Shown: piece after piece, positions 3,248-13,272 of the stretch
Position numbering within the stretch: the first letter of the stretch is position 1
How the letters are laid out: every line of letters begins with the position of its first letter
Source: a virus
Taxonomy: Duplodnaviria > Caudoviricetes
Virus record (IMG/VR): IMGVR_UViG_2882682849_000004
Coordinates: 5,296 to 69,295 of that record
DNA length: 64,000 nt
Reading direction: 5' to 3' (one strand)
The notes under the pieces: generated by a model
The model's input: the letters and a program-made list of their open reading frames with translations, nothing else
Told to the model about the DNA's origin: nothing
Databases searched by the model: none
Translations under genes and position numbers: made by a program

Positions 3248-3805
3248 ATGGCAATCGGCAAACGTATCAAATTTTTTCGCAATAGAAAAGGCATGACGCA
3301 AAAGCAACTGGGCGAAATCCTCGGCTTCCTCGGAAAGACCTCTGATGTCCGCATGGCACAGTATGAATCCGAAGCCAGAGTGCCGAAGCATGACCTTGTA
3401 AAAGAAATGGCGAATCTTTTCGGTATCAGCACCCACGCCCTCACAGTGCCGGACATTGATACAAATATAGGGCTTATGCACACCCTTTTTGCGCTGGAAG
3501 ATATGTACGGGCTGAAAATCGGTGAGATTGACGGGGAAATCTGCCTGCGTCTGGATAAGTCCGATTACTCCACCTATTCTTCCATGTTCAAAATGTTCCA
3601 CGCATGGCAGTCAGAAGCCGCCAGACTGGAAAAGGGCGAAATCACCAAAGAAGAATATGACGAGTGGCGGTACAAATATCCAGAACTTGATACCCACCAA
3701 ATCTGGGCAAAGGTTCCTCCGCAAGAATTGTTTGACTTCATCAATGACGCTGCCAAAGAAGCAGAAAGTACAGACAAAAAAGAAGCAAAGCGCAAGAAAA
3801 AATGA
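3248..3805 (+). CDS. XRE-family transcriptional regulator, divergent from xis-int
   Basis: HTH_3 motif GMTQKQLGEILG...MAQYESEAR; RBS GGAGG before ATG 3248. Confidence 0.88.
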   Translation: MAIGKRIKFFRNRKGMTQKQLGEILGFLGKTSDVRMAQYESEARVPKHDLVKEMANLFGISTHALTVPDIDTNIGLMHTLFALEDMYGLKIGEIDGEICLRLDKSDYSTYSSMFKMFHAWQSEAARLEKGEITKEEYDEWRYKYPELDTHQIWAKVPPQELFDFINDAAKEAESTDKKEAKRKKK

Positions 3806-5034: not shown

Positions 5035-5310
5035 TTATTCCACATCTAGCAACTCTAATGCCTCCCAGTCCCAGCCTTCCCAGCCTTTCCCTTCAGCCCA
5101 GGCATCCATGTCCACGCCCAGCAGCTCCAGCGCATCATCAACACTCATGCTGTGATTGGTCAGTATGCCTCCGATAATCTCAAACACATTATCGTCTGAA
5201 TAGACCAGCAGCATATTTCCGTCATACTCTGCCTGCTCTATTTTTTCCAATACCTCTGCTCCATAATCTTCTAAAATCTGCTCTCTTGCGTATTCTCTCA
5301 TAATTTTCAC
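5035..5310 (-). CDS. Acidic hypothetical protein
   Basis: 91-aa ORF, very D/E-rich with W-rich C-terminus. Confidence 0.7.
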   Translation of the reverse strand: MKIMREYAREQILEDYGAEVLEKIEQAEYDGNMLLVYSDDNVFEIIGGILTNHSMSVDDALELLGVDMDAWAEGKGWEGWDWEALELLDVE

Positions 5311-7973: not shown

Positions 7974-8219
7974 TTATTTGCTTTTTAAGGCTTTTAAGTG
8001 CTCATCTGCTGTGATAGCAGGCTGTGTAAAGCTGTTATTTTTCCACCAGGCCCACGCAGACGCCGCCGCCGTCAGTGCCATGGACACAGCTTGTCCGACA
8101 CCATCGTCTGTAAACGGCAGAGGACTGTACCCACTAATCGTCAGCACCTGATTAATCAGTGCGAACGCCAGAACCGCCGTTCTTACAATTGTTTCTTTTT
8201 CGATTTTCTTTTTTTTCAT
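7974..8219 (-). CDS. SPP1-type holin
   Basis: RTAVLAFALINQVL...PLPF...WAWWKNNSFT signature. Confidence 0.9.
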   Translation of the reverse strand: MKKKKIEKETIVRTAVLAFALINQVLTISGYSPLPFTDDGVGQAVSMALTAAASAWAWWKNNSFTQPAITADEHLKALKSK

Positions 8220-8241
8220 AGTTTTAATCCTCTCTTTCTCT

Positions 8242-8568
8242 TTATAAAAGTATCAGTAATGCAGTTACAACAGCGCCCACAATGGCACTAATGGCGGAAG
8301 TTATAATGGCCATTTTTATTTGTTTATGTGTTTCAGCAGGCTCTTTTTCCAAAATTTCCATTCGGTCACCAAGCTTTCTTTGTTCCGCAAGCATATTTTC
8401 CATGTTGACTGCCATTTTTTCTATTGAAACCGTCATGGAATTGATATGCCGACCGTTTTCTTCCAGCAGAGCGATCCTCCTGTTCTGCCGCGCATTTTCA
8501 GAATCTATGCGCCGGGCAAATTCTTCATGCTCGCTACGCGGAATATAACCATCCATAGTCTCCATCAC
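8242..8568 (-). CDS. XhlA-like lysis-cassette protein (coiled coil plus C-terminal TM helix)
   Basis: Coiled coil followed by AIITSAISAIVGAVVTALLILL; upstream of holin. Confidence 0.65.
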   Translation of the reverse strand: MMETMDGYIPRSEHEEFARRIDSENARQNRRIALLEENGRHINSMTVSIEKMAVNMENMLAEQRKLGDRMEILEKEPAETHKQIKMAIITSAISAIVGAVVTALLILL

Positions 8569-8593
8569 CTCCTTAAATATGAAAGTAAATAAA

Positions 8594-8612
8594 AAAGAGC
8601 CTTGAAGCTCCC
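8594..8612 (-). terminator. Weak hairpin plus U-tract just outside the left outer inversion site
   Basis: Minus strand GGGAGCTTCAAGGCTCTTTTTT. Confidence 0.45.
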
Positions 8613-8638
8613 ATTAACAACATAAATGATTAAATGTA

Positions 8639-8679
8639 TTAAATGATAATTTAAAGACGTCTTTTCAGGCTGGTGTTGA
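8639..8679 (+). repeat. Outer-left inversion site (inverted partner of 11969-12009)
   Basis: 8644-8679 matches reverse complement of 11969-12004 at 35/36 nt; core TTAAAT-GATA-ATTTAA at 8639-8654. Confidence 0.92.
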
Positions 8680-9019
8680 CACTTTGTTTAACAGGTGTCA
8701 AAGCTGTGGGTCAACACCAAGTGCAAAAACACCCACAGCAATAAGCACCGCCATACAAAAGATATTTACAGACAGATATAATGCTGGAGTTAACGCCGGG
8801 GTTGCAGCCAACAAAATCTCTTATGTAACTATTACAGCTAATATGCCGGGATATAAGTATGCTGACCAGGCAGGTGGTAAGGTAACCGGGACTCTTACGG
8901 CAAATATCTCAGGTAAAACGGTTACCAGCGTTTCCGGGGCACTTACGTTGCATTGTCAGTATGCTAAAACCGGGGTAACACAGGCCTATACGATACCGGT
9001 TACAATAAATATTTCATAA
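8645..9019 (+). CDS. Silent alternative C-terminal cassette (B) for tail-tip protein 11623-12150
   Basis: DNLKTSFQAGVDTLFNRCQSCG...RYNAG parallels DNLKTSFQDGVDTLYNKCKSCG...RYNAG; in-frame TGA at 8627 and no RBS, so no independent start. Confidence 0.88.
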   Translation, partial: DNLKTSFQAGVDTLFNRCQSCGSTPSAKTPTAISTAIQKIFTDRYNAGVNAGVAANKISYVTITANMPGYKYADQAGGKVTGTLTANISGKTVTSVSGALTLHCQYAKTGVTQAYTIPVTINIS

Positions 9020-9048
9020 ATGATCATTTTGGGATTAGCAGTGGTTAA

Positions 9049-9067
9049 ATAAATCTTTATTTAATAC
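9049..9067 (-). repeat. Inner-left inversion site (inverted partner of 11598-11616)
   Basis: TAAATCTTTATTTAATAC 9050-9067 is the exact reverse complement of 11598-11615; core (minus) TTAAAT-AAAG-ATTTAT. Confidence 0.8.
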
Positions 9068-9116
9068 GCCCGTTTCCCCTATATCTGGTATCATATCTTC
9101 AAAAACGGAGGATACC

Positions 9117-10109
9117 ATGAAAGAGCAATTTATTTGTGAAATCCTGCACCACCTACCTTCTTTTTCCTCTGACCAGCTATCAGAGATCAAAGATGCCATT
9201 CGCATTGTCCTATGCAAGTATGATCTGGAGGCCAAGGGCACATCCCTCCAAACCGTCAATAACACAAGCCTGCACTATCTGCAGATGTACCTGGAGTCCT
9301 GCGAGCAGGCCGGAAAGTCCAAAGGAACCTCCGGGCTTTACCGGTTCCACTTGTCCCACTTTTTGTCTTATGTAAATAAGGATATCTCCCAGATCACTGA
9401 CGATGATGTCTACACCTATCTGTACAATTACAGGCACAAACGTACTGTCAGCAACTCCTACCTTAACCAGATCCGGCTTATCCTCAACGGCTTTTTCAAA
9501 TGGCTCATTAAGCGGAGGGTGCTTACTGCCAATCCGGTTGACTCCATTGACTCCGTTAAATGCCAGAAGAAAGTAAAACAGCCCTTGTCCGCCGAAGATG
9601 TGGAGCTGCTCCGCTCCGCCTGTGAATCTGAGCGGGATCTTGCGATCGTGGAATGCCTTTACAGCACCGCTGTAAGGGCCTCTGAGCTCCTTCAGCTTAA
9701 CCGCTCTGACATTTCCTTTGCCAAAAATGATATAGTCGTCCTCGGTAAAGGGAATAAAGAGCGCGTCACCTACCTTAATGCAAGATCCCATATCCACCTA
9801 AAAAACTACCTGGGGCTGCGTACAGACGATAACCAGGCCCTGTTTGTAAGCAGCAGGGCACCCCACGAACGCCTTACCCGCCGGGGACTGGAAGACATAC
9901 TTAACCGGATTGCTGCCGCTGCAAATGTAAAAAATGTCCATCCCCACCGGTTCCGGCGTACCAGTGCTACTGACTTGCTCAATGCCGGCATGCCGATTGA
10001 ACAGGTACAGGAGCTGCTTGGCCATAAAAGTATTGAGACTACACGCATTTACTGTACGGTAAACCAGGAAGCCGTGAAACATAACCATAAGCGGCTCATG
10101 AATTTTTAA
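9117..10109 (+). CDS. Tyrosine recombinase (invertase) inside the invertible segment
   Basis: STAVRASEL, GKGNKER, HPHRFRRT, LGHKSIETTRIY; RBS GGAGG; opposite strand to late genes. Confidence 0.93.
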   Translation: MKEQFICEILHHLPSFSSDQLSEIKDAIRIVLCKYDLEAKGTSLQTVNNTSLHYLQMYLESCEQAGKSKGTSGLYRFHLSHFLSYVNKDISQITDDDVYTYLYNYRHKRTVSNSYLNQIRLILNGFFKWLIKRRVLTANPVDSIDSVKCQKKVKQPLSAEDVELLRSACESERDLAIVECLYSTAVRASELLQLNRSDISFAKNDIVVLGKGNKERVTYLNARSHIHLKNYLGLRTDDNQALFVSSRAPHERLTRRGLEDILNRIAAAANVKNVHPHRFRRTSATDLLNAGMPIEQVQELLGHKSIETTRIYCTVNQEAVKHNHKRLMNF

Positions 10110-10171
10110 GTCTCCATTTTCCAGCCTGCTTCTTTTCAGCCTGCCTCTGGGAGGCTTATACATTGTGCCTT

Positions 10172-10621
10172 TTATCCTGCTGACCGGAACAAGGTATAAT
10201 GCGGCCTTTCCCTTTTCCACATCCATGGACGCCACTTCCGGAATGCAAGATAATTCCCGTATCGCAGCCAGTCATCAAGTACAATACAGGCCACGGCCAG
10301 CAGAATCCAAAGCAGGAAATAATATAGGCATACCTGCCCCATCAGGTTAAACGGCAGGCCGGAATAATCCCATACATCCCAGCCCAGCCACAGGTTGATG
10401 ATACATCCCGTAAAAAATTCCAGCACTGTAATTATAACTGCCCCTATCACTGCCTGCTGCATCAATGCCAGTTCCCACGGGAAAAGATGCTCATTGAGAA
10501 ACCCAATGATTACAAAGCATAAACCGCCCAGGATAAACATTGTCCAGTGCGTCCTTCCCCGGCAGGCCAGCTCCAGCCATGTATATAACCTGCCTCCGAT
10601 TAAAAACAGCAATATCTCCAT
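10172..10621 (-). CDS. Four-TM membrane protein (putative ABC-transporter permease-like, CmpB-type)
   Basis: GRTHWTMFILGG...EFFTGCIIN...WDYS...PFNLMGQVCL pattern. Confidence 0.75.
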   Translation of the reverse strand: MEILLFLIGGRLYTWLELACRGRTHWTMFILGGLCFVIIGFLNEHLFPWELALMQQAVIGAVIITVLEFFTGCIINLWLGWDVWDYSGLPFNLMGQVCLYYFLLWILLAVACIVLDDWLRYGNYLAFRKWRPWMWKRERPHYTLFRSAG

Positions 10622-10627
10622 ATCGTA

Positions 10628-11503
10628 TTACACCTCCTGCTGTGCTTCCTGTGCGGCATACATATCAGCAAGCACCTCTGACCGGAATTCTGAAGGAATT
10701 ACCATGCCGTATGTTACTGCCTCTACGGATGCCTTATCCTCCAGGCTGTTAATATACCTCCGCAAATCCCGATAATAAGTTTCATGGTAAGTCCCGTATT
10801 CCATCGCATTTTTAATAATCAGCTGCATATCGGCGTTTGTAAAATAACGGCACGGATCATCCAAATCTGATGTATGCCATGGTATTTTTTCGTCTCCCGC
10901 AGCAACACTCGCCTGCAATGCCATAAGACGTTTCTGTTCATATTCCGCCAGGGCAAAATGCTCCATACTACCATCAGTTAATGCCACGTTAATACCGCCC
11001 TGCATTACGGCCTGCTGTGCTGCCTCCATCTCTGATATCTTTCTGGCCTTTACCTCTTCCAGCGGTTCCACGTATGTAAATTTCGCTTCAAACGCCGTGT
11101 CTCCGTTCACCACGCCCGCATCCGGAATTTCCGGATCCCATCCTGCAAATACATAGTTTTCATCCGAAACCGGAGAGGGGATAACCAAATCTTCAAAATT
11201 GCTCACAGTCTGCATTATATCTCCGTCTATGGTGCCTCCCTGACCACAGGTAAAAGCTACAGTCGGTACCGGTGCCGTATAAACGCTGCCATCATCTGAA
11301 AACTGTGCACCGCCCTCTGTCCTGAGGTATAATGTCTTAAATCCTGTATAATCCCAGGCATCATCTTCCTTACCCTCCCTAAAGAGAGTAAAACCTTTCG
11401 TTTTTACCGGAAATTCTCCGGTTATCTGCACTACATGCCGGTTCAGTTTTTCAAACTCTACTTCATAGGTGTTTTTTTCTCCGGCATATTTTAAATTAAT
11501 CAT
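10628..11503 (-). CDS. Tail-associated protein: InlB-B-like repeat plus DUF4376-like C-terminus
   Basis: YVFAGWDPEIP repeat-like segment; LEEVKARKISEM...HFALAEYEQ...YHETYYRDLRRYI C-terminus. Confidence 0.6.
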   Translation of the reverse strand: MINLKYAGEKNTYEVEFEKLNRHVVQITGEFPVKTKGFTLFREGKEDDAWDYTGFKTLYLRTEGGAQFSDDGSVYTAPVPTVAFTCGQGGTIDGDIMQTVSNFEDLVIPSPVSDENYVFAGWDPEIPDAGVVNGDTAFEAKFTYVEPLEEVKARKISEMEAAQQAVMQGGINVALTDGSMEHFALAEYEQKRLMALQASVAAGDEKIPWHTSDLDDPCRYFTNADMQLIIKNAMEYGTYHETYYRDLRRYINSLEDKASVEAVTYGMVIPSEFRSEVLADMYAAQEAQQEV

Positions 11504-11539
11504 ATCTTTTCCTTTCTCCCCAAAAGCGGGTAAAATAAC

Positions 11540-11555
11540 GGAGCCTTACGGCTCC
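11540..11555 (-). terminator. GNRA-capped hairpin downstream of the active cassette
   Basis: GGAGCC-GTAA-GGCTCC followed by GTTATTTT. Confidence 0.5.
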
Positions 11556-11597
11556 TGGTTATAGTTTCTAAATATATTTTTCTGTTCTGCCCATCCT

Positions 11598-11616
11598 GTA
11601 TTAAATAAAGATTTAA
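11598..11616 (+). repeat. Inner-right inversion site
   Basis: GTA-TTAAAT-AAAG-ATTTAA; inverted partner of 9049-9067. Confidence 0.8.
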
Positions 11617-11622
11617 TGATTT

Positions 11623-12150
11623 TTAAACAGTAAGGTTTATTACCCTCTCTGGCGTATACTGCCCGGGGCTGACATAGCCCGTACTGCTATAAGTAGTCGC
11701 AGCGCCTCCGTCAATGGATACGGATGCATGGGCATTTAAATTAACACGGCTATCCCCTCCACAGTTGCCCTTAACTGTTATTGTTACGGTATGCTTTACA
11801 TCTGTCTGGACGCCATAAGCGTTTGGATTAGCTTTTACATCATTTTGCCCTTGAGTTCTGCCAGCATTGTATCTGTTGGTATAAATGCTTTGTATGGCAT
11901 TAACAATTGCTGTAGGCGTTTTATCGGATGGTGTTACCCCACAGCTCTTACACTTATTATATAGTGTATCAACACCATCCTGAAAAGACGTCTTTAAATT
12001 ATCAATTAATTCATCAACCACGACTGCTGATGGCAGATTATCCGGATTGGTATTTGCCGCAACTTCCTCCTTAGTCTTCAATATCCTTTTCTCTGTATAA
12101 GCTAAATAAAACTTTTCTATTCCGTTTAAGATCTTTTCTGCCATTGTCAT
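11623..12150 (-). CDS. Tail-tip / receptor-binding protein with switchable C-terminus (cassette A expressed)
   Basis: 49-aa constant N-terminus then inversion site in frame; last gene of the tail-fibre block. Confidence 0.8.
   Translation of the reverse strand: MTMAEKILNGIEKFYLAYTEKRILKTKEEVAANTNPDNLPSAVVVDELIDNLKTSFQDGVDTLYNKCKSCGVTPSDKTPTAIVNAIQSIYTNRYNAGRTQGQNDVKANPNAYGVQTDVKHTVTITVKGNCGGDSRVNLNAHASVSIDGGAATTYSSTGYVSPGQYTPERVINLTV
11969..12009 (-). repeat. Outer-right inversion site, inside the coding sequence
   Basis: Minus strand TTAATT-GATA-ATTTAA-AGACGTCTTTTCAGG. Confidence 0.92.
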
Positions 12151-12410
12151 GGTCCCACTACCTCCTCTTCCTTGTTAAATATGCTGTTAATCTGTTCATC
12201 AGATATGTCCGAGTTCAGGAAATCATATAAAGACGTCCCGTCAGGCAGCCAGACAACACGGGCATCCGTGTGAAAGTAGCAGACATTTCCATTAGAATCC
12301 TGAAATTCAACTAATAAATATCTGCCATCAATAACCGCTCCCGTATTTGTATTATCTTCTGCTCCTGTAGCTGTACTATTAACTGTCCCCGTATTTGTAC
12401 TATCTTCCAT
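12147..12410 (-). CDS. Small tail-fibre-region protein
   Basis: 87-aa ORF, stop overlaps next start. Confidence 0.7.
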   Translation of the reverse strand: MEDSTNTGTVNSTATGAEDNTNTGAVIDGRYLLVEFQDSNGNVCYFHTDARVVWLPDGTSLYDFLNSDISDEQINSIFNKEEEVVGP

Positions 12411-12420
12411 TGTTGCCCTC

Positions 12421-13272
12421 CTATCTTGTACTTTTTACTGACGCATATATCTTTCCTGGCTGACGGACTATCTCCTTCCCATCTTCCAGATATACTACAT
12501 TGCTGAAAACTGCCTTATATGGGCTGTTGTCTGCCTCAAGCTCTGTTTTTTCTGTCTTTTCAACCCCGTACAAGGTCCCTGATACTGTGGGATCCTCCAT
12601 TCCGGTTATGTACCGGTCAAAAAAGATCATAATCACGCCCCTTTGAGTCGTGATAAAACCATATGCACACCCTTTTGTCCTCAAAGACGGCGGTTTGTAA
12701 GTAGTCTCTGTCATCAGGACAAACGGATCATCCGTCCCCGCAAAGCAGTTGCTCTTAAGATCCAGCAGGTGCCTTGCTATCTGTCCGAACAATTCTGATA
12801 ACGTATCTCCCGACTTAAGCTTTCCCCTTTCTTTTGGCACATTAAAAACAGAAGCGAACTCATATTCACGAGGATTATTTTCTGAGTCTGTCCGGTGTAC
12901 TTTAAATATTTTGCTGGTATCCTTAAGGAGCTCAAACAAAATTGTATTTTCTCCGTCCAGCTCATCAATTGTCCCTATCTTTACCCCGCCTTTTCCGGCT
13001 GCCTTTAAAGCTGCCACATCATGAAACAGCTTCAGGCATTTCAGGTCTGTGATGTGCTGTAAGGTATTAAACTGCCGGGATGTGGGGATGCCGTTGATCC
13101 CTCCCACGATAGCAGACCATCCGTCTGTCCAGTCTTTTATGCTGATGTTCTCGCGGCTCCCCGTATCTGCAAACAGGCTTTCAAAAAGTTCTTCCAAAGA
13201 TGCGCTGTTAATACTGCTTTCAGTTTCGACAGCAAGTCCGTTTTTTGTTTCCTTATCGCTACTTTCCATCAA
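12421..13272 (-). CDS. Putative tail fibre / baseplate-attached protein
   Basis: Follows DUF2612-like gene; GW..IVGGINGIPTSRQFN N-terminus typical of fibre attachment domains. Confidence 0.6.
   Translation of the reverse strand: MMESSDKETKNGLAVETESSINSASLEELFESLFADTGSRENISIKDWTDGWSAIVGGINGIPTSRQFNTLQHITDLKCLKLFHDVAALKAAGKGGVKIGTIDELDGENTILFELLKDTSKIFKVHRTDSENNPREYEFASVFNVPKERGKLKSGDTLSELFGQIARHLLDLKSNCFAGTDDPFVLMTETTYKPPSLRTKGCAYGFITTQRGVIMIFFDRYITGMEDPTVSGTLYGVEKTEKTELEADNSPYKAVFSNVVYLEDGKEIVRQPGKIYASVKSTR

Follow-up and report, generated by a model that had tools for sequence, protein, structure and literature searches.

Two nested pairs of inverted sites with common arms and different central tetranucleotides at a probable tail-fibre shufflon of a prophage

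We examined the tail-fibre region of a prophage in a 64-kb window (64,000 nucleotides, positions 5,296 to 69,295 of the IMG/VR virus record IMGVR_UViG_2882682849_000004, a virus of the Caudoviricetes). In this region, a fibre gene and a gene for a 330-amino-acid (330-aa) tyrosine recombinase are accompanied by four short sites, A to D, that share the arms of the motif TTAAAT-N4-ATTTAA and carry two different versions of the four central nucleotides (N4). The outer sites (A and D) and the inner sites (B and C) form two nested inverted pairs, and both pairs are found recombined in public assemblies, which confirms an earlier prediction from the letters of the window (hereafter, the original prediction) that all four are real recombination sites in two matched pairs. 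In natural isomers of related loci, strand exchange maps to N4 and the base on either side of it. The locus is probably a reduced, nested form of a Rin-type shufflon for the fibre (the receptor-binding protein), run by a single XerD-like tyrosine invertase and with its two site codes insulated from each other by N4 heterology; we have moderate confidence in this reading as a whole. The 330-aa recombinase presumably does the work, and the difference in N4 presumably blocks cross-reaction between the pairs.

The pattern TTAAATNNNNATTTAA, with at most one mismatch, has exactly four matches in the window (starts 8639, 9049, 11601, and 11994), which is where the original prediction had placed the sites. 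The number of TTAAAT-N4-ATTTAA matches expected by chance is 0.92, and none of 100 shuffles reached four. The sites are oriented A>, B<, C>, and D<, and N4 is GATA in the outer pair and AAAG in the inner pair. Written in one orientation, they read tgtATTAAAT GATA ATTTAaagacg (A), cgtATTAAAT AAAG ATTTAtttaac (B, reverse complement), tgtATTAAAT AAAG ATTTAatgatt (C), and tgaATTAATT GATA ATTTAaagacg (D, reverse complement); this alignment agrees with the spacers and with the inverted arrangement of both pairs that had been predicted. The identity between A and D spans 26 nucleotides (nt) (8644-8669 is the reverse complement of 11979-12004) and opens a 154-nt inverted repeat with 78% identity, which exists because the two cassettes behind these sites are homologous. 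B and C form a perfect 18-nt inverted repeat (9050-9067 / 11598-11615).

The outer sites head two alternative C-terminal cassettes of the fibre, in frame, while the inner sites lie just after the cassette stops, are non-coding, and flank the block recombinase-orf149-orf291 (Table 1). Site D is within the fibre gene, where its core reads E-L-I-D-N-L and where the fibre, after its constant part, reads V-V-V-D-E-L-I-D-N-L-K-T-S-F-Q. The silent frame from site A reads L-N-D-N-L-K-T-S-F-Q-A-G-V-D-T; about 60 of its residues are homologous to the expressed C-terminus, and the frame then diverges. The outer flank of A looks toward an xhlA-like gene, a holin, and an endolysin. Site B is 30 nt past the stop of cassette 1 and 50 nt ahead of the start codon of the recombinase, and site C begins 8 nt past the stop codon of the fibre gene.

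Elsewhere in the window's own genome, matches to ATTAAAT-N4-ATTTA lie inside large, unrelated open reading frames (ORFs), with no homologues of the locus proteins nearby, and we judge them to be due to chance. Contig 21 of that genome (G000; L182) has an inverted pair of such matches (125309-125324 / 128701-128716, 3.4 kb apart, with N4 of CGGT and CGTG). We rejected this pair, together with an accompanying TTAAATGATAAATTAA / TTAATTTATGATTTAA pair, as candidate sites: they lie in large unrelated ORFs on a contig with no recombinase homologue.

Both inversions were found in public data, by which we mean Logan contigs and other metagenome assemblies. Recombination between B and C (B×C) is present in a 2941-nt Logan contig (X2, which is also locus L019), where 9050 is joined to 11616 on opposite strands and 18 letters fit both sides. 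This contig runs from the stop of cassette 2 through the outer flank of C, the inverted repeat, and the inner flank of B into the recombinase gene in sense; its junction reads aaaatca TTAAATCTTTATTTAATAC gcccgtttcc, and the same junction occurs in L147, from a different run. Also, an X1 contig that ends at 9067 continues as AGGATGGGCAGA, which is the reverse complement of 11586-11597, and another X1 contig has the reference junction, so both orientations of the inner block coexist in one sample.

Recombination between A and D (A×D) was found in the same phage (at least 99.5% identity) in sample ERZ14864800. One contig (L148) runs from the outer, xhlA-side flank of A through GATA to cassette 2, native C, and orf291, and the other (L156) joins the window phage's own constant part to cassette 1. 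A close relative (L013/L014) shows both flips, with the constant part followed by cassette 1 (98% identical), a B/C hybrid, and orf291 in sense; the outer flank of D leads into cassette 1 in L013, L014, and L156. The 175-aa protein of this relative (P0001) has a related constant part fused to cassette 1 (98% identity), and a full-length protein made up of a constant part and cassette 1 is present in two assemblies. Single contigs bridge three of the four possible states (the reference, A×D only, and both). As the B×C status differs between the last two, the two switches move independently. Contigs of all four runs are interrupted at each of the four sites, which is expected of k = 31 graphs, since these branch at short invertible repeats.

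The position of the crossover comes mainly from relatives. We fetched about 100 related metagenome loci, and in these the recombinase stays linked to sites of this kind. The invertase is accompanied by orf291 and orf149 in most of the related loci that were checked (including L001-L012, L065-L144, and L164-L172); relative to the recombinase, these two genes are convergent in the clade with 76-97% identity and co-directional in the clade with 54-57% identity. The usual layout has two two-cassette segments on either side of the recombinase-orf149-orf291 block, with four sites that head real cassettes of 80-210 codons. In most of the other relatives that we examined, all four head sites carry a single N4 and all positions shuffle. 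This single code is AATA in L164 (recombinase 96% identical) and L065 (97%), GATA in L066, L069, and L085, and AGTG, AGGG, or AACG in the distant (54-57%) clade. As near-identical enzymes use AATA, GATA, and AAAG, N4 is not a recognition element. The core of a head site encodes L-N-(N/D)-(N/K)-L, so N4 is under coding constraint there.

In these one-code relatives, one and the same cassette is found behind many left flanks, at positions that include the far end, the constant part, and the sides next to the recombinase and to orf291. L007 and L090, for instance, represent a single phage (97.5-98.8% identity) whose cassettes have changed places between the segments. Variants of the left arm (TTAATT, TTAAGT, CTAAAT, and others; -2 from N4) always remain with the left flank in 54 informative pairs, and variants of the right arm (ATTTG, ATTTA, AATTA; +2 from N4) always remain with the cassette in 60 informative pairs, although these pairs are non-independent and some of them compare paralogous cassette heads of one locus and not isomers. 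Since the variants at -2 and +2 stay with their own flanks, exchange is confined to T-N4-A, or 6 base pairs (bp), which falls within the 6-8 bp that is typical of tyrosine recombinases. In the window's lineage, sites A and D differ (A/T) at -2, and in L148, L156, and L013 this difference has remained with the flank; the identity between B and C ends directly after ATTTA. The role of N4 as the strand-exchange spacer was part of the original prediction and is supported by these isomers, which also place the exchange there rather than in an adjacent palindrome, AAAGACGTCTTT, that had been named as the other possibility. The palindrome is present only at A and D, where it encodes the conserved cassette residues K-T-S-F. 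We rejected it as the crossover site because it is absent from B and C, which still recombine, and because it is not conserved in L065 or L164 (recombinase 96-97% identical).

Outer and inner sites have the same binding arms and different overlaps, and like sites recombine in both pairs. The outer overlap (TGATAA) differs from the inner overlap (TAAAGA) at 3 of 6 positions, and the two also differ in the opposite relative orientation. For tyrosine recombinases such as Cre, Flp, lambda Int, and XerCD, overlap heterology blocks the completion of exchange. To look for hybrids between the codes, we classified the sites in contigs of the window's lineage by their 45-nt flanks. Flanks of A and D always had GATA and were joined only to flanks of A or D, flanks of B and C always had AAAG and were joined only to flanks of B or C, and there were no outer-inner hybrids among about 30 classified junctions from about 12 samples (these are assemblies and not a measurement of frequency). 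The joints listed for the Logan contigs also include no cross-code joints, to which we give little weight. The absence of hybrids is consistent with insulation between the GATA and AAAG pairs, without being proof of it. From the lack of cross-code junctions and the general rule for overlap heterology, we infer that the two pairs are orthogonal, and insulation of the window's pairs by overlap heterology is plausible. So, of the proposal that one enzyme runs two orthogonal switches, the single candidate enzyme, the sites, their pairing, and the place of crossover hold up, while the orthogonality itself stays an expectation from these two arguments.

The purpose that was first suggested for the two codes did not survive. 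The original prediction was that the spacer mismatch prevents outer-inner recombination that would delete a cassette. However, A×B or C×D recombination would invert one cassette and truncate the fibre, not delete anything. Also, one-code relatives with identical direct sites keep four cassettes, so the avoidance of deletion must rest on something else; the authors of the Rin study raise the same puzzle (PMC6109161). Avoiding dead-end inversions is a better rationale for two codes than avoiding deletion.

In the mechanism that we propose, strand exchange takes place within the 6 bp of T-N4-A. A×D inversion replaces cassette 2 with cassette 1 behind the constant 47-aa N-terminus and so changes the tip of the fibre. 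B×C inversion flips the recombinase-orf149-orf291 block; after a swap of the tip, this flip can return orf291 and orf149 to the downstream side of the fibre gene, and it decides whether the recombinase gene is sense or antisense to the late operon. The genes downstream of the fibre gene are orf291 and orf149 in sense in the window and double-flip states (in L013, cassette 1 is followed by orf291) and the recombinase in sense in the single-flip states. Synapses between outer and inner sites should abort, as with heterospecific lox or FRT sites. Insulation would then prevent A×B recombination, which would flip cassette 1 alone and strand it, and C×D recombination, which would fuse the constant part to a 10-codon stub (L-N-K-D-L-M-I-F-K-Q-stop). 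It would also block the direct-repeat deletions A×C and B×D.

Several observations weigh against this reading. First, no single contig bridges the state with B×C only (with the constant part still on cassette 2). Second, the right-hand (+2) bound on the crossover comes from the 54-57% clade, and the window's lineage bounds the exchange only to T-N4-ATTTA (for B and C) and to 26 nt (for A and D). Third, assemblies show majority forms, the samples are few, partly from one study, and not independent, and several of the contigs were fetched by using proteins that fix the junction type. Fourth, L096 and L103 (of the 54-57% clade) have inverted partners with unlike N4: the N4 of the site at the constant part differs from that of its inverted partners (AGGG versus AGTG in L096, AACG versus AGGG in L103). 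Mismatch may be tolerated in these loci, or mismatched sites may persist without function in partly locked mosaics, or these may be further multi-code cases. Finally, the presence of two codes could be a side effect of mosaic exchange and of the loss of cassettes, and not a design under selection. (The sites of L096 are at 3594, 6100, and 7133, with AGTG, AGTG, and AGGG, and those of L103 are at 2288, 3077, and 4503.)

This last point leads to the origin of the inner sites. Site B is at the same distance from the start of the recombinase (about 50 nt upstream) as the inner cassette head in L164 and L065, and the upstream region is homologous. Because of these similarities, B and C are best read as the heads of two cassettes that have been lost; they now read L-N-K-D-L, followed by 4-5 codons and a stop. 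Another relative, L076 (82%), has the same reduced layout, with a non-coding inner pair (AATG/AATG) and AATA at the outer site of the expressed gene (the D position); its contig stops short of the second outer site. The one nucleotide by which these inner and outer sites differ falls inside the mapped overlap. L076 is a second case of a matched inner pair that is unlike an outer site.

The alternative that survives best is that B and C are nothing but such leftovers, which still recombine because they happen to be identical. The difference in N4 would then be due to drift or mosaic ancestry and would have no insulating role, and cross events would be rare or would be lost via the truncated fibre. 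That the homologous positions in L164 and L065 are cassette heads fits with this, and the N/D codon constraint that fixes N4 where a site heads a cassette does not apply to B and C, which are non-coding. Mismatched partners do persist in L096 and L103, and decay of the shufflon is common in nature: L150 is a deletion derivative, and the recombinases of L002 and L168 are frameshifted. On the other hand, B and C are identical over 18 nt and have the same N4, which is two positions away from the AATA of the nearest one-code relatives (L065 and L164), and L076 has a second matched inner pair. Both B×C orientations are found in several samples. Also, N4 lies within the mapped exchange interval, and by the general rule for this class of enzymes, a heterology at 3 of 6 positions cannot be neutral. 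We consider this alternative less likely than not, but far from negligible.

The L150 contig (from Logan, SRR22941755) is a naturally locked derivative from this prophage lineage, with 88.6% identity over its main aligned stretch. It has lost 8619-9902 through a deletion whose ends are not at the sites. Site A, cassette 1, site B, and two thirds of the recombinase gene (from its 5' end) are gone, and a C-like site and D remain as relics.

Insulation by N4 heterology could also be taken further. Once the two inner cassettes had been lost, the relic inner sites may have diverged together (from AATA through AATG, as in L076, to AAAG) while the outer pair moved to GATA, which would give an evolved natural set of heterospecific sites. 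The invertase would then run a two-bit register in which the first bit is the receptor-binding tip and the second is the orientation of the block relative to late transcription. If so, expression of the recombinase and of the accessory genes would be coupled to the state of the switch. We offer this fuller version tentatively and would put it well short of an even chance.

Another possibility is that the two pairs are served by different recombinases (one pair, for example, by a host Xer-type enzyme or the integrase of the prophage) or that homologous recombination through RecA is at work. There is a second tyrosine recombinase about 6.5 kb away, and the genome encodes 18 other weak paralogues. 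But all four sites have the same arms, and the 330-aa gene is located within the segment and keeps its synteny with such sites across about 100 loci. Repeats of 18 nt and 26 nt are very short for efficient RecA-dependent recombination. In relatives, the partners differ on either side of the 6 bp to which exchange is limited, as is characteristic of site-specific recombination. This makes a division of labour very improbable. The only recombinase within the invertible segment is of the PF00589 tyrosine type and is the presumed invertase for both pairs. Its best relatives in the Protein Data Bank are XerC-like proteins, XerA, and XerD, and its motifs are intact (AVRASEL, GKGNKER, HPHRFRRT, LGHKS, and TRIY, with the catalytic R, K, H-x-x-R, H, and Y). 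It has core-binding and catalytic domains without an arm-binding domain, it is close to the fibre gene, and the closest paralogue that the 4.79-Mb genome encodes shares 27-30% identity with it. (The second tyrosine recombinase, at about 1852-2586 on the minus strand, is 25% identical to the invertase, has a 374-aa open frame, and is probably the prophage integrase.)

Finally, chance matches or misassembled repeats are refuted as an explanation: the motif is AT-rich and isolated matches do occur inside unrelated ORFs of the genome, but the shuffles never reach four matches, the junctions are reciprocal, precise, and recurrent across independent runs and studies, and a full-length fusion of a constant part to cassette 1 is found in two assemblies.

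Among known systems, the closest to this locus is the Rin shufflon of Bifidobacterium prophages (Mavrich et al., 2018; PMC6109161), in which one 11-bp rix sequence (TTCCCTAACCC) is found at all sites, the recombinase is at one end, and there are 4-5 cassettes. Both have a phage-encoded XerD-like tyrosine invertase without an arm-binding domain beside the gene for a receptor-binding protein, a constant N-terminus with promoterless variable C-terminal cassettes that are headed by short asymmetric crossover sites, and one site just past the 3' end of the expressed gene, and in both cases inversions are seen in sequence data (PMC6109161). In the window, these inversions are exactly at the repeats. 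In contrast to Rin, the recombinase of the window is central, two cassettes are left, and there are two nested pairs with different central nucleotides (T-GATA-A in the outer pair and T-AAAG-A in the inner pair) instead of one crossover sequence, so we class the locus as a variant of the Rin type; the comparison is one of layout, enzyme build, and sites. The one-code relatives described above (L164, L065, L069, L085, L005, and others) share the recombinase (54-97% identity), orf291 and orf149, the arms of the sites, and the position of the inner sites, but their four sites head real cassettes, with one N4 and shuffling among all positions, whereas the window has lost both inner cassettes.

In the shufflon of the conjugative plasmid R64, the tyrosine recombinase Rci acts at sfx sites, and the PilV pilus adhesin exchanges its C-terminal segments by inversion; only inverted sites recombine. 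The spacer and right arm of sfx sites are common and the left arm varies, and we know of no nested heterospecific pairs in R64. As in the window, a tyrosine recombinase drives multiple inversions among asymmetric sites to swap adhesin-like C-terminal segments. The locus is set apart from R64 by its context, which is the tail and lysis module of a prophage; the genes that were scanned include none for a pilus. The lox511, lox2272, and F3 sites are man-made, with identical arms and different overlaps, and only like sites recombine. The window also combines the same arms with different overlaps, but incompatibility has been measured for the engineered sites and is expected by analogy for the window. 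Gin, Cin, and Min (of Mu, P1, and p15B) also switch tail-fibre C-termini by inversion, and Min is a multi-segment shufflon; these are serine invertases with a Fis-dependent enhancer and a 2-bp crossover, whereas the window's enzyme is a tyrosine recombinase. For one enzyme with several non-interchangeable pairs of sites, there is a natural precedent in the cod/ivr hsdS locus of S. pneumoniae, where a single tyrosine recombinase, PsrA, carries out separate inversions via the pairs IR1, IR2, and IR3 (PMC7096588). The three repeats there are named separately, lie in restriction-modification hsdS genes, and are not described as shared arms with a variant 4-nt core. (We set aside a preprint on the Roseburia phage Shimadzu, which concerns an unrelated inversion of cro.)

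Two things are new: the nesting, in a phage fibre shufflon, of two site pairs whose arms are common and whose overlaps differ, and the 6-bp crossover map for the whole family. Shufflons of tail fibres that rely on a tyrosine invertase were first described in 2018, in gut prophages, and have been little studied. If the pairs are insulated, they are a natural counterpart of heterospecific lox sites and make up a compact four-state DNA switch, with a 330-aa enzyme and sites of about 16 bp, that might serve as a recombinase tool. For phage biology, insulation would mean that a shufflon can become smaller and still avoid dead-end inversions.

The locus lies at the end of the prophage that carries the tail-fibre and lysis genes. 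Transcription runs leftward, with baseplate genes ahead of orf87, in the order orf497, orf200, orf283, orf87, fibre gene, orf291, orf149, recombinase (on the opposite strand), silent frame, xhlA-like gene, holin, and endolysin. At the left end, Pfam and PHROG scans identify the xhlA-like gene, an SPP1-type holin, and an amidase endolysin; orf200 has a weak match to Phage_Wedge1, and the PF14301 score of orf291 (24.4 bits) is just below the curated cut-off of 25 bits. Pfam and PHROGs gave no match for the fibre, cassette 1, orf87, or orf283, and megablast of 8200-12600 against GenBank phages gave none either. The features of the locus are listed in Table 1.

Table 1. Sites and genes of the inversion locus (window coordinates)
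Feature	Position	Strand	Description
Site A	8638..8669	+	Core ATTAAAT-GATA-ATTTA at 8638-8653, plus the stretch identical to D (8644-8669); heads silent cassette 1
Cassette 1	8639..9019	+	Silent, promoterless alternative fibre C-terminus; 126 codons from the site; stop at 9017-9019
Site B	9050..9067	-	Inner, non-coding; core ATTAAAT-AAAG-ATTTA on the minus strand
Recombinase, 330 aa	9117..10109	+	XerC/XerD-like tyrosine recombinase; Pfam PF00589 (1.6e-37), PF13495; PF13495/PF02899 domains
orf149	10172..10621	-	CmpB-like small protein; PF06541 (putative ABC-transporter type IV), 2e-12; PHROG 20274, 1.4e-37
orf291	10628..11503	-	Tail-fibre-associated, DUF4376; PF14301, 4.2e-05; PHROG 1348 'tail fiber protein'
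Site C	11598..11615	+	Inner, non-coding; core ATTAAAT-AAAG-ATTTA at 11600-11615
Fibre gene, expressed, 175 aa	11623..12150	-	Constant 47-aa N-terminus (12010-12150) and cassette 2 (11623-12009)
Site D	11979..12010	-	Core ATTAATT-GATA-ATTTA (reverse complement of 11995-12010), plus the stretch identical to A (11979-12004)

The evidence points to a Lachnospiraceae-type bacterium of the mouse gut as the host of the prophage. Homologues of the invertase (34-46% identical) are present in 36 of 301 sampled genomes of the host family (a count that includes the window's own genome), and a large family of such shufflons exists in Lachnospiraceae-type gut bacteria. Several of these homologues are about 100-1500 bp from the end of a contig, as expected if heterogeneity due to inversion breaks assemblies.

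Homologues of the fibre have a common stalk (SFQAGVDTLYNKC...NRYNAG) and a tip that varies. An AlphaFold2 model of the 175-aa fibre, from an alignment of 31 sequences, was too poor for a fold search (mean predicted local distance difference test score, or pLDDT, of 55.9; predicted template-modelling score, or pTM, of 0.32); at this low confidence, residues from about 41 to 107 form a helical stalk, and the tip is beta-rich. A scan for sigma-70-like promoters found fewer sites than shuffles give and was uninformative about expression in each state. There are two similar GC-rich hairpins with T-rich tails on the minus strand, at 11540-11555 and 8595-8612 (GGAGCCGTAAGGCTCC and GGGAGCTTCAAGGCTCTT), which sit just upstream of orf291 and of the xhlA-like gene, respectively. 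The hairpin near orf291 belongs to the inner block and therefore moves relative to the fibre gene when B×C inversion occurs. Upstream of the fibre gene, the 87-aa orf87 contains three tandem 24-nt repeats (12337-12408, 71-83% identical) that encode a repeated N-terminus rich in Thr, Asn, and Gly.

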